Shown here piece by piece: positions 2,554-5,940 of a stretch of DNA of 45,161 nt. Numbering within the stretch: the first letter of the stretch is position 1; each line of letters starts with the position of its first letter. The translations under genes were made by a program, and so were the position numbers. Under the pieces are notes generated by a model. It was not told the DNA's origin, ran no database searches, and was given only the letters and a program-made list of their open reading frames with translations. The DNA is from Escherichia phage KW1E_UTAR: sequence record MZ506873. One strand, written 5' to 3'.

Positions 2554-2904
2554 ATGCAACGCAAGAAATATAACTTCACACTGCCGCGCCACATCACCAG
2601 AAAGCAATGGCGCATAATCCACCGTGATATGAGAAACAAGCTTCGCGATCTAGGCGGCGACGGCGTAAAACTTATCAGCGAAAAATATGGGACTTGGGCC
2701 ATTTACACCGTGTCTAACCATTCGAAGATAAGCTTCTTCTGGGATCTTGCCAGTCACAAGGAACATGATCGCTCCTTCTTCGCGGCAGCCATTCGCGGAA
2801 ACACTCAGGGCCGAACCATTGATCGCGTATTCGGTACGGTCCTGGCGCTGAAAGACCCGGCACATCCGGCTAATAACCTTCCTCCTCTGGGGGGTGGCGA
2901 GTGA
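2554..2904 (+). CDS. hypothetical protein
   Basis: ORF-track frame 2527..2904; start chosen at ATG 2554, 7 nt after AGAGGG. Confidence 0.5.
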   Translation: MQRKKYNFTLPRHITRKQWRIIHRDMRNKLRDLGGDGVKLISEKYGTWAIYTVSNHSKISFFWDLASHKEHDRSFFAAAIRGNTQGRTIDRVFGTVLALKDPAHPANNLPPLGGGE

Positions 2905-3434
2905 AGCCGATCACCATCAACCTATCAGACGACGACATCGAATTCGCCTACTACCTTAATGGTAGGGAAGAGACATTCGCGAAGAGTTTAAGCCAGTGCA
3001 GCCCGGACAGTCGGGCTGTGGGAATACTGGGGGAAATGGCGGCGACTCACTTCCTTCGTGGAATGTACGGGACGAAGCGATCTGTCGTTCCTATGGGGCT
3101 GTCTGCCCGCGCTGGCGGCGGCCTTAACGCTTACGGAATGGGTGACATCATCACCGTGATGAACGGCTCGCCCTCCCACAGGACGAAGGAGGTTCACACG
3201 TTCGAAGTGAAGGCGCGCACCGCTGGTGCAGGTAAGGGAAACCTTGTTCGATGTGACAGCGCCGAACAGTATCAGGAGTCCGGCATTATGCGCGTCATCT
3301 TCGTGGACGTCGATGTCCAGCCTGATCGTGCAGTCTGCCAGATCGTCGGCTACCATCAGCCTGAAGACATCCTTGAATGGGACGTGGTCACAAATGGCAT
3401 GGGTCAGGAATGCTATATCATGCCCGTAATTTGA
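2901..3434 (+). CDS. hypothetical protein, possible PD-(D/E)XK (VRR-NUC-like) nuclease
   Basis: GTG start overlapping upstream stop; GMGDIIT...FEVK...SAEQ...RVIFV resembles a D...(E)xK nuclease core. Confidence 0.45.
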   Translation: MKPITINLSDDDIEFAYYLNGREETFAKSLSQCSPDSRAVGILGEMAATHFLRGMYGTKRSVVPMGLSARAGGGLNAYGMGDIITVMNGSPSHRTKEVHTFEVKARTAGAGKGNLVRCDSAEQYQESGIMRVIFVDVDVQPDRAVCQIVGYHQPEDILEWDVVTNGMGQECYIMPVI

Positions 3435-3459
3435 CCGACAAGATCCACGGCGTTACTAT

Positions 3460-3490
3460 TCCCCGGACTAACACTTCGGGGATTTTTTTT
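3460..3490 (+). terminator. rho-independent terminator
   Basis: TCCCCG-gactaacactt-CGGGGA hairpin followed by a T8 run. Confidence 0.55.
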
Positions 3491-3766
3491 ATGCATAAGA
3501 TGCTATGGGTCGCTATCGCTGGCCTGGTCGGGGCCATCATCGGGATGTTCCGTTCCAAGGCTGACACTCTCACACAGCGCGCTTCGTTCGTCCTGTTCGG
3601 ATTCGCCGCGTCAATCTTCCTGACTCCGCTGGCTGCCCGCTGGTTCGGTCTGGGTGACATTTACGAGGTCGGCGGCGCTGGCTTCATTATCGGCATGTTC
3701 TGGATTGCTATTCTGGACCGGGTGAAGCAAGCTATGACGGACGGTAAATTACCGGAGGTCAAATAA
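3491..3766 (+). CDS. putative holin (three predicted transmembrane segments)
   Basis: Small hydrophobic protein (MHKMLWVAIAGLVGAIIGMF...) immediately upstream of the endolysin cassette; no clear SD. Confidence 0.5.
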   Translation: MHKMLWVAIAGLVGAIIGMFRSKADTLTQRASFVLFGFAASIFLTPLAARWFGLGDIYEVGGAGFIIGMFWIAILDRVKQAMTDGKLPEVK

Positions 3767-4092
3767 TGCGTAACATTACCCTTACACAGTTCTACAGCGT
3801 GGACATGTTCTGGCTATCATACGTCGGGATCTTGTGCTTGCTGGTCTTCTTCATCGTGTCAGTGGTGAACGTGTATTCGCCATACTGCAAGGACACGGTG
3901 ATCGATCGTGTCCTGTACCTGGCGACGGCATTCATTAGCCTGGTAGGGCTTGAACAAGTCATCTTCAGCGATTACCCTGTGAACCTGACGACCAGCCTGA
4001 TCATCGTCTTCACACTTCGCCAGGCGAACAACATGGCAAAGAGAGTTATCAGGCATCACTGGCCCGAAATGGGGCGACGGTATCACTTCTAA
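3766..4092 (+). CDS. membrane protein, second holin/antiholin candidate
   Basis: Hydrophobic segments; ATG overlaps upstream TAA; GGAGGT 6 nt upstream. Confidence 0.45.
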   Translation: MRNITLTQFYSVDMFWLSYVGILCLLVFFIVSVVNVYSPYCKDTVIDRVLYLATAFISLVGLEQVIFSDYPVNLTTSLIIVFTLRQANNMAKRVIRHHWPEMGRRYHF

Positions 4093-4100
4093 CCGTTAAC

Positions 4101-4126
4101 GGGTCGCTTCGGCGGCCCTTTTCTTT
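4101..4126 (+). terminator. terminator-like hairpin (possible attenuator)
   Basis: GGGTCGC-ttcg-GCGGCCC stem with one G-U pair followed by TTTTCTTT, directly upstream of the endolysin start. Confidence 0.4.
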
Positions 4127-4141
4127 ATGAGGACTATCACA

Positions 4142-4636
4142 ATGATGAAGACCGGGAAGCGCGGCATCGCGCTGATGCATGGATTCGAAGACTGCCGCCT
4201 TCGTGCCTATCCAGATCCTAAGACTGGCGGCAAGCCGTACACGATCGGGTGGGGTAACACTCAATACGCTGATGGTCGCCCGGTAGGTCCGAACGACGTT
4301 ATCAGCCAGGCGCGCGCCGACGAAGAGTTCGTCTTCGACCTGATCACGTTCGAAACCATGATCGATAAGGCCGTGAAGGTTCCACTGACACAGAACCAGT
4401 TCGACGCGCTGGTCAGTATCGTCTACAACGTCGGCCCGGGCAGTAAGTACAAGTCCGGCATCCTGCGACTTAAGAACGGGCAGCCTTCGACGCTGTTACG
4501 CCTCCTGAACGCTGGGGACTACAAAGGGGCCGCTGACCAGTTCGACGTCTGGATCAGCAAAGGTTCGGCGGTTGAAAATGGTCTTCGTCGTCGCCGGGCA
4601 GCAGAAAAGGCCCTGTTCCTGGACAAGTCAGCATGA
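4142..4636 (+). CDS. endolysin, T4-type lysozyme (glycoside hydrolase family 24)
   Basis: E...D...T catalytic pattern in HGFEDCRLRAYPDPKTGGKPYTIGWG, comparable to T4 lysozyme; alternative start at 4127. Confidence 0.85.
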   Translation: MMKTGKRGIALMHGFEDCRLRAYPDPKTGGKPYTIGWGNTQYADGRPVGPNDVISQARADEEFVFDLITFETMIDKAVKVPLTQNQFDALVSIVYNVGPGSKYKSGILRLKNGQPSTLLRLLNAGDYKGAADQFDVWISKGSAVENGLRRRRAAEKALFLDKSA

Positions 4637-5115
4637 ACTGGCGAGTCGCCGCGATAGCTATGGTCTGTGCCGGGGCTTTCTTTCTGGGCGGTTACTGGAA
4701 GGGCCACCATGACGCCGACCAGTCCGCCACGGTTGAACGGCTAACCAATGAGCGCGACAGTATGGCCCGGACGATCGAGTCGTACCGGAACACCAACGAC
4801 AAATTGAGCGAGATCGCCAACAATGCAAAAGAGAAAGAAGAACGCGCGCGGACTGTGGCTTCTGCCCTTCGTCATGATGCTGACAGCTTGCGCGGACAGC
4901 TACAGGGCATCGTCGACGCTTATCGTCCCGGAACTACCAGCAGGGGCGCGCCAGCCAGCCAGGTCGTCGGTCTGCTTGCCGGACTGCTTGACGAAGCAAA
5001 CCGAACGTCAAACGAGCTATCAGAAGAGGCTGAACGATATCGTCGCGCCGGGGAGCAATGCGAATTAAGCTATGATGCCGTAAAACGCGCTCAAACGCTC
5101 TTAGAGAAGAGGTAA
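4633..5115 (+). CDS. Rz: i-spanin (Rz-like)
   Basis: N-terminal transmembrane segment, coiled-coil periplasmic domain, position directly after endolysin; ATGA overlap. Confidence 0.75.
   Translation: MNWRVAAIAMVCAGAFFLGGYWKGHHDADQSATVERLTNERDSMARTIESYRNTNDKLSEIANNAKEKEERARTVASALRHDADSLRGQLQGIVDAYRPGTTSRGAPASQVVGLLAGLLDEANRTSNELSEEAERYRRAGEQCELSYDAVKRAQTLLEKR
4823..5068 (+). CDS. Rz1: o-spanin (Rz1-like lipoprotein), embedded in the +1 frame of Rz
   Basis: Signal peptide with lipobox LTAC (LLPFVMMLTAC), short Pro-containing mature part, wholly inside the Rz gene. Confidence 0.7.
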   Translation: MQKRKKNARGLWLLPFVMMLTACADSYRASSTLIVPELPAGARQPARSSVCLPDCLTKQTERQTSYQKRLNDIVAPGSNAN

Positions 5116-5117
5116 AA

Positions 5118-5145
5118 GAAAGGCGACCGATAGGCCGCCTTTTTG
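5118..5145. terminator. bidirectional terminator between convergent gene blocks
   Basis: AAAGGCG-...-CGCCTTTTT hairpin flanked by A and T runs; between Rz (+) and the 5176..5940 gene (-). Confidence 0.5.
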
Positions 5146-5175: not shown

Positions 5176-5940
5176 TCAGAATTCACGCTTAGGAGTGAAA
5201 TTAAAAGACATAACCTCACCGCCTAAATTAACAAGGCCGGAATGGTAAATCTTCCACCCTTCACCTTTTCCATCCACTTCGGACGGTCCAGAACCGTAGA
5301 TGATGCCTTCCATTTCTTCAGCGGATAACGCGGCGTAGCAGGTCAGGTCTGCCCGGCTGTCGATGGTCTTCGAGTCCTGTGCGCGCACCAGCTTCAGGCA
5401 CATAAGCAGGTCCCAGACGTCCATCGCGGTGAACTCCCGTCGCTTCAACGCGCTGAACATGGCAGCTACGCGGGCTGCGCTTCGTTCCTGTCCGTTGTCG
5501 TAACCTTCGCCGCGCTCGTTCAGCAGTTCAACGCCGTCCAGCAGGATCGCGCCAGCGGAACGCGGAAGACGTTCTTTGTCCATCTGATCCTGGGCGGCCT
5601 GATCCACGAACTTCGCGAAGTTATAGCGGGCCACTTCTGCGCGAGACATCGACTCACCAGTCCCGACAGCAAGATATTCACTGGCAGGGTACAGGCATTC
5701 AACCAGGCAATAGTCGACCTGGAATTCCACGCCAGGACAGTTAGGGTCTTCGATAATCCATTCGAACGTCACCAGCGTCTTGCCGTTGTGTTCTGTGGCG
5801 AAGCGTGGGATTACCAGCGCCTTTGATGGAGGTGTGTTTGTCTGATCAGGGCGTTCAAGGTCGCCGCGCGCAGGGTCATAGACGTGAATCATACCCAGCG
5901 TAGGCTTATACCCGTTGAACTTGTTGTTCATGTTAATCAT
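5176..5940 (-). CDS. hypothetical protein
   Basis: 254-aa ORF in leftward operon; the C-terminal half looks all-alpha, but no motif I can name confidently. Confidence 0.55.
   Translation of the reverse strand: MINMNNKFNGYKPTLGMIHVYDPARGDLERPDQTNTPPSKALVIPRFATEHNGKTLVTFEWIIEDPNCPGVEFQVDYCLVECLYPASEYLAVGTGESMSRAEVARYNFAKFVDQAAQDQMDKERLPRSAGAILLDGVELLNERGEGYDNGQERSAARVAAMFSALKRREFTAMDVWDLLMCLKLVRAQDSKTIDSRADLTCYAALSAEEMEGIIYGSGPSEVDGKGEGWKIYHSGLVNLGGEVMSFNFTPKREF

Follow-up and report, generated by a model that had tools for sequence, protein, structure and literature searches.

The complete genome of Escherichia phage KW1E_UTAR (sequence record MZ506873; 45,161 bases, referred to here as the window) very probably encodes a two-component spanin, formed by the products of one gene at 4633..5115 and another at 4823..5068, as the last unit of the lysis cassette of this lytic siphophage. 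Both genes, as delimited from the table of open reading frames (ORFs) and the raw sequence, lie on the plus strand and run from ATG to TAA, the first encoding a 160-amino-acid Rz-like protein (the candidate i-spanin) and the second an 81-amino-acid Rz1-like protein (the candidate o-spanin). The Rz1 start is offset from the Rz start by 190 nucleotides (4823-4633 = 190 = 63x3+1), which places Rz1 in the +1 frame of Rz, where it occupies 0.39-0.90 of the Rz gene length (L) and is wholly embedded. An earlier note on this DNA had described an o-spanin ORF at 4823..5068 lying entirely inside the i-spanin gene in the +1 frame, and comparison with the ORF list and the sequence finds that description exact to the base. 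Approximately 70% of the o-spanin genes of the embedded type begin at 0.4-0.5 L and terminate at 0.9-1 L (PMC6139136), and the position predicted for Rz1 matches this usual geometry. The +2 frame of Rz contains no ORF of more than 5 codons beginning with ATG. The Rz ATG overlaps the stop codon of the preceding endolysin gene by four nucleotides (ATGA), suggesting that translation of Rz may be coupled to that of the endolysin; Rz1 would have an independent translation start of its own, an ATG preceded by a weak GAG-type Shine-Dalgarno sequence.

The N-terminus of Rz1 (MQKRKKNARGLWLLPFVMMLTA, followed by the predicted cleavage site and then CADSYR...) reads as a signal peptide of residues 1-22, with five Lys/Arg residues in the n-region and an uncharged hydrophobic h-region. 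Lipidation is predicted at Cys23, with Ala rather than Asp at the +2 position. The lipobox LTAC reported by the earlier note is indeed present as residues 20-23 (L-T-A-C), and it conforms in a pattern test to [LVI][ASTVI][GAS]C, the lipobox criterion for o-spanins (PMC6139136). That note would have given up the assignment had no lipoprotein signal been found; the pattern test instead recovers n-region, h-region, lipobox, and the Ala at +2. A rule-based scan of the window for lipoprotein signals, covering all six frames, returned exactly one match, the Rz1 ORF. In relatives, the residue following the lipobox cysteine is Ala, Ser, Thr, or Lys, consistent with sorting of the outer-membrane type. 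The predicted mature protein is 59 amino acids long and contains five prolines (8.5%). Nothing in Pfam or NCBIfam matches Rz1, and PHROGs alone gave matches: PHROG 11621 (Rz-like spanin) aligns with residues 1-80 over profile positions 1-82 of 88 (E-value 1.7e-16).

The length of the embedded frame carries little information about whether it is translated. When the Rz protein was re-encoded 5000 times with the codon usage of the window, a +1-frame ORF beginning with ATG and spanning at least 81 codons was present in 10.8% of the synonymous recodings, and ORF length was rejected as evidence of coding since so many recodings reach it. Together with the weakness of the Shine-Dalgarno sequence and a public record of the phage that appears to lack an Rz1 protein, this frequency favors the explanation that the embedded ORF is an untranslated chance frame and that Rz functions alone or with some other partner. 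Comparison of the window with Klebsiella phage KLB16 (80.5% nucleotide identity over the cassette) contradicts that explanation. Substitution density is 33/246 within the overlap versus 52/237 outside it (Fisher p = 0.017), and the site most commonly substituted moves from Rz position 3 outside the overlap (25 of 52 substitutions) to Rz position 1, equivalent to Rz1 position 3, inside it (18 of 33; p = 0.013). Seventeen of the 33 overlap substitutions are silent in Rz1 versus an expectation of 24% (p = 4.7e-4), while only 8 alter both proteins versus an expectation of 51% (p = 1.8e-3). The Rz1 frame is under purifying selection, as this pattern of substitutions shows, and it is, if anything, the more constrained of the two frames within the overlap. 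The PHROG 11621 match, the occurrence of the sole lipoprotein signal of 45 kb and six frames at precisely this ORF, and the retention of the lipobox cysteine and an ARQ..CxPxC motif by homologues at 30-50% identity, some of them with an Rz more diverged than Rz1, likewise speak against a chance frame, leaving it extremely improbable. Rz and Rz1 are thus shown to be both protein-coding and conserved, and the signature in the overlap is no discovery but a neat illustration, suited to teaching, of how two frames can be constrained at once.

The conserved residues are distributed as would make sense if each frame carried its own share of the constraint. Residues 34-59 of Rz1 are identical in KW1E_UTAR, KLB22, and KLB16, and the ARQP..CxPxC motif, the best-conserved portion of Rz1, is encoded over the predicted linker and the start of the second helix of Rz, while the most conserved motif of Rz (AG..CE..YD) lies mostly past the Rz1 stop codon.

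A tblastn search with Rz1 produced matches in 77 phage records, from which about ten loci were fetched (KLB22, KLB16, JenP1, ChristophMerian, Tyrion, PAS61, Phi05_1999B, K70PH128C1, Taid, and the Burkholderia phages KL4 and KS9). At every fetched locus an Rz homologue is present, and its +1 frame contains a lipobox ORF. Loss of the embedded frame in relatives was the other outcome that the earlier note had regarded as fatal to its proposal, and both KLB22 and KLB16, as well as more distant phages, keep the +1 lipobox ORF. The residues of Rz1 that are invariant comprise Cys23, Ala42-Arg43-Gln44, Cys51, Pro53, and Cys55 (with ARQP in nine of ten), and the homologues at 30-50% identity belong to phages of Escherichia, Klebsiella, Enterobacter, Pectobacterium, and Burkholderia. 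Rz1 has diverged less than Rz in several fetched phages, and its conservation is therefore not a by-product of that of Rz. The Rz1 of Taid has a deviant lipobox (LNGC), which was missed by the strict pattern and read by eye; LNGC is listed as a known o-spanin lipobox variant (PMC6139136).

Within the phage collection, close relatives are limited to KLB22 (PP554336; Klebsiella phage vB_KM5a1-KLB22) and KLB16 (PP197198; Klebsiella phage vB_KM5a1-KLB16), both placed in 'Ca. Mavericviridae'. KLB22 is 93.8% identical at the nucleotide level (94% for Rz and 95% for Rz1 in amino acids), and KLB16 is 80.5% identical (76% for Rz and 81% for Rz1). Both share gene order, gene lengths, and reading frame with KW1E_UTAR and have the lipobox LTAC or LTSC, and both differ from it by few amino acids, none of them at Rz1 residues 34-59. 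The two genes are annotated at homologous positions in KLB22 and KLB16 as an i-spanin and an embedded o-spanin (PMC11845039), and the KLB22 annotation mentions 'two coil domains' in the i-spanin. These two phages were isolated on Klebsiella sp. M5a1, whereas the host of KW1E_UTAR is Escherichia. Farther away, the same family is represented by Burkholderia phages KL4 (Rz/Rz1) and KS9 (gp24/gp24') and the Uetakevirus phages Tyrion and PAS61, with identities of 31-45% for Rz and 30-51% for Rz1. Like KW1E_UTAR, these phages have the second gene embedded in the +1 frame, the ARQP..C.P.C and AG..CE..YD motifs, and a lipobox of LTAC or LGAC. Their holins and endolysins are mostly unrelated to those of KW1E_UTAR, so the spanin pair would seem to move as a mosaic module of its own.

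Small phage lipoproteins with roles other than that of a spanin exist, for example Cor and the Llp protein of T5. Rz1 might accordingly be a genuine lipoprotein of another function, such as superinfection exclusion or receptor blocking of the Cor or Llp type, with Rz acting without it, and the spanin role of the family has been assigned by analogy rather than from interaction or lysis data. What argues against such a role is that Rz1 always occurs with an Rz homologue, and over the same part of it, despite unrelated holins and endolysins or an altered gene order. Its position at 0.39-0.90 L is typical of embedded spanins, and it agrees with o-spanins in size, in its periplasmic cysteines, and in having a sorting signal for the outer membrane. 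Additionally, the six-frame scan turned up no second candidate lipoprotein in the genome with which Rz might pair. A non-spanin function for Rz1 is considered very improbable, and its assignment as the o-spanin of the pair is preferred.

The features predicted for Rz agree with those of an i-spanin. Residues 5-22 (VAAIAMVCAGAFFLGGYW) form an uncharged hydrophobic segment between Arg4 and Lys23, with a mean Kyte-Doolittle value of ~1.8 over the 18 residues (counted by hand), and are helical in the structural model. That model (AlphaFold2, single-sequence; predicted local distance difference test score 82) comprises a helix of residues 3-96, a coil of residues 97-106 (RPGTTSRGAP), and a second helix of residues 107-159, and the modeled architecture is that of an i-spanin (anchor, first coiled coil, linker, second coiled coil). 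Rz scores 59.2 bits on PF10721 (DUF2514), for which the cut-off is 26, with profile positions 1-160 of 161 aligned, and it also matches PHROG 312 (Rz-like spanin) at 2e-24, along with ten weaker spanin PHROGs. The check with spanin-specific profiles recommended by the earlier note therefore returned both proteins, Rz through PHROG 312 and Rz1 through PHROG 11621. Cys143, which is periplasmic in the predicted topology, lies in the C-terminal motif AG..CE..YD, and this motif, including the cysteine, is invariant across ten homologues. Periplasmic cysteines available for intermolecular disulfides are found in 507 of 528 spanin systems (PMC6139136), and the sequences of the KW1E_UTAR pair contain three candidates (Rz Cys143 and Rz1 Cys51 and Cys55), all of them invariant.

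A further possibility is that the phage uses a unimolecular spanin of the T1 gp11 type, or lyses its host independently of spanins, and that Rz is a coiled-coil protein of some other function. The public names of the Rz cluster ('DUF2514' and, for one member, 'chromosome segregation ATPase') and weak matches of the coiled-coil type to unrelated families would be in keeping with this. These alternative names, however, are generic coiled-coil artefacts far below cut-offs, while eleven PHROGs labeled 'Rz-like spanin' match Rz, the best of them at 2e-24, and the gene is apparently coupled in translation behind the endolysin. As for a unimolecular spanin, Rz1 lacks a C-terminal membrane segment, and no segment beyond Cys23 is hydrophobic. 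The probability of these explanations is regarded as close to negligible, and Rz is read as the i-spanin partner of Rz1.

Upstream of the spanin genes, on the same strand, are the other genes expected of a lysis cassette. The first (3491..3766) encodes a 91-amino-acid candidate holin with three hydrophobic segments and a charged C-terminus, which matches PHROG 2359 (holin) at 8e-21 and is annotated as a holin in KLB22 and KLB16. The second (3766..4092) encodes a 108-amino-acid membrane protein matching another holin family (PHROG 2508, 2.6e-12), and its start overlaps the stop codon of the holin gene (TAATG). Two to three hydrophobic segments are found in each of these proteins by hydropathy, and neither matches anything in Pfam or NCBIfam; the second is possibly an antiholin or a second holin. 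The third gene (4127..4636) encodes a 169-amino-acid endolysin of glycoside hydrolase family 24 (GH24; T4/P22-type), identified by matches to PF00959 (Phage_lysozyme, 3e-34), to PHROG 7 (2.3e-53), and, down to 6e-35, to sequences in the PDB that include the P22 lysozyme 2anv and the GH24 muramidase 8b2s. Every hydropathy window of the endolysin stays below 1.6, and the protein, having no hydrophobic N-terminal segment, is predicted to be soluble and holin-dependent rather than of the signal-arrest-release type. The earlier note had proposed that two membrane proteins, a GH24 endolysin, and the spanins make a complete lysis cassette, a proposal borne out by the matches to PHROG 2359, PHROG 2508, and PF00959 and by the hydropathy profiles. 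The stretch 3491..5115 is, as predicted from its genes, a canonical holin-endolysin-spanin cassette.

The mechanism envisaged for the KW1E_UTAR pair is modeled on work with Rz/Rz1 of phage lambda (PMC6139136). By analogy, Rz would be inserted in the inner membrane, its helical domain reaching into the periplasm, and Rz1 would be cut by signal peptidase II, lipidated at Cys23, and sorted by the Lol system to the outer membrane's inner leaflet. Rz and Rz1 would then bind each other by way of their C-terminal regions to give a complex that reaches across the periplasm through the peptidoglycan mesh, with covalent dimerization probable through Rz Cys143 and/or Rz1 Cys51 and Cys55. Once the holin (3491..3766), whose action the second membrane protein may modulate, had permeabilized the inner membrane, the soluble GH24 endolysin would degrade the murein, and the spanin complexes thereby freed would collapse, fuse the inner and outer membranes, and complete lysis. 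The likeness to lambda extends to the arrangement of the genes, with Rz1 embedded in the +1 frame of Rz at the end of the lysis cassette after holin and endolysin (PMC6139136). It extends also to the proteins, Rz of lambda being a membrane protein of type II whose two helical segments are joined by a linker and Rz1 an outer-membrane lipoprotein, both with periplasmic cysteines (PMC6139136). There are differences as well. Mature lambda Rz1 is 40 amino acids long, with 25% proline and a single cysteine, whereas that of KW1E_UTAR would have 59 amino acids, 8% proline, and a CxPxC pair; lambda Rz contains two periplasmic cysteines versus one in KW1E_UTAR Rz. The R protein of lambda is a transglycosylase, unlike the KW1E_UTAR endolysin, which is predicted to be a GH24 lysozyme. 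The pair would work like Rz/Rz1 of lambda and LysB/LysC of P2 while, in its sequence, belonging to the family of neither.

Several considerations weigh against the assignment of the pair as a spanin. Function was assigned by analogy with lambda, T7, and P2. Profile searches for the classical families were negative: no lambda-type Rz or Rz1 family of Pfam is matched by either protein at an E-value of 1 or below, and TIGR03495 (LysB of P2) reaches 14.6 bits where the cut-off is 92.75. NF038368 (P2_Rz1) reaches 12 bits of the 27 required, and does so with the wrong protein. The predicted membrane anchor of Rz is short (18 residues) and falls below the threshold of 1.6 Kyte-Doolittle units over 19 residues, the window missing it because of the flanking charges Arg4 and Lys23. 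For Rz1, the lipoprotein call is a pattern test rather than a LipoP or SignalP prediction, the mature protein is less proline-rich than that of lambda (5 of 59 residues versus 10 of 40, or 25%), the Shine-Dalgarno sequence (4810-4812) is weak, and the length of the frame, as described above, is within the reach of chance.

Other sequence elements in and around the cassette may contribute to its regulation. A sigma-70-like promoter was located by consensus scan on the plus strand at 3431-3459 (TTGACC-17-TACTAT). Directly 3' of it, also on the plus strand, is a terminator-like hairpin at 3460-3482, with a stem of 8 bp followed by T8 ending right at the holin ATG (3491) and a Shine-Dalgarno-like GGGGA in its 3' arm. 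The predicted RNA fold of this hairpin has an energy of -17.4 kcal/mol (z -2.25), and the 86 bases at 3425-3510 are 97% identical in KLB22 and KLB16, compared with ~80% overall for KLB16. The stretch comprising promoter and hairpin is probably a regulatory element of the cassette; a transcript from the 3431-3459 promoter would lack the 5' arm, and the hairpin could distinguish read-through transcripts from local ones. The holin itself begins Met-His-Lys-Met (ATG 3491 and ATG 3500), a possible dual start that resembles the S107/S105 dual-start holin/antiholin motif of lambda. In KLB16 the M-H-K-M beginning is retained, and the His and Lys codons both carry synonymous changes.

A second, GC-rich hairpin (4101..4125, plus strand; GGGTCGC-TTCG-GCGGCCC, then TTTTCTTT) lies in the gap separating the second membrane-protein gene from the endolysin gene, with 95% column identity across KW1E_UTAR, KLB22, and KLB16, and may act as an attenuator or an RNA-stability element. 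A third, terminator-like hairpin (5119..5142) separates Rz from the convergent gene on the minus strand; its terminator score is on the minus strand, and the plus-strand stem has one A.C mismatch. That stem position is A.C on the plus strand (G.U on the minus strand) in KW1E_UTAR and reversed in KLB16 (G.T), and the strand favored by the terminator appears, from these pairings, to differ between the two phages. A compensatory change in this stem was considered and rejected, the differences looking like two independent single changes rather than covariation. Across the whole window, a gathering scan gave no Rfam match and a tRNA scan found no tRNA gene. The cassette is flanked upstream by a plus-strand gene (2901-3434) for a 177-amino-acid protein of unknown function (PHROG 10558) and downstream by the convergent minus-strand gene (5176..5940), which encodes a 254-amino-acid DUF6378 protein with the PHROG label 'phosphofructokinase'. 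Homologues of both also border the lysis genes in Taid and K70PH128C1, and the neighborhood is therefore conserved beyond the lysis genes themselves.

In public data Rz is QYA57174.1, named only 'protein of unknown function DUF2514', and an exact-sequence look-up found that the exact Rz1 sequence is absent from a collection of 15 billion proteins, so the o-spanin was probably never called in KW1E_UTAR and is probably unannotated in its public record. Embedded o-spanins are a blind spot of gene callers, as was pointed out once more for the related Ymer phages (PMC11445585). A literature search under the name KW1E_UTAR produced a single comparative-genomics mention. Elsewhere, the DUF2514/PHROG 11621 family is already annotated as Rz/Rz1 or as i-/o-spanin (KS9, KL4, Tyrion, ChristophMerian, and KLB22), and the embedded pair of KW1E_UTAR is of an already known kind, a textbook arrangement. 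Adding Rz1 completes the lysis cassette of KW1E_UTAR, and the gain is a correction of the annotation and little beyond.

The wider family holds a less expected feature. The Nonagvirus phages (9g, JenP1, and ChristophMerian) encode homologous proteins (33% identity for Rz and 40% for Rz1) with Rz1 likewise in the +1 frame and a lipobox of MTGC, and their spanin genes, unlike those of KW1E_UTAR, lie upstream of the endolysin gene. In JenP1 and ChristophMerian (positions 1281-1809 of locus L003 and 1233-1764 of locus L008, respectively), Rz1 extends 31 nucleotides beyond the Rz stop codon, such that the genes are overlapped rather than embedded; Rz1 is embedded in all of the fetched relatives besides the Nonagvirus phages. 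According to the 2018 survey, no spanin family had both embedded members and members of the overlapped or separated type (PMC6139136). The balance tips slightly towards the view that, contrary to that survey, the family of DUF2514 Rz and PHROG 11621 Rz1 proteins contains both embedded and overlapped members. If the homology holds, the family would provide natural intermediates for understanding how one gene comes to lie inside another.

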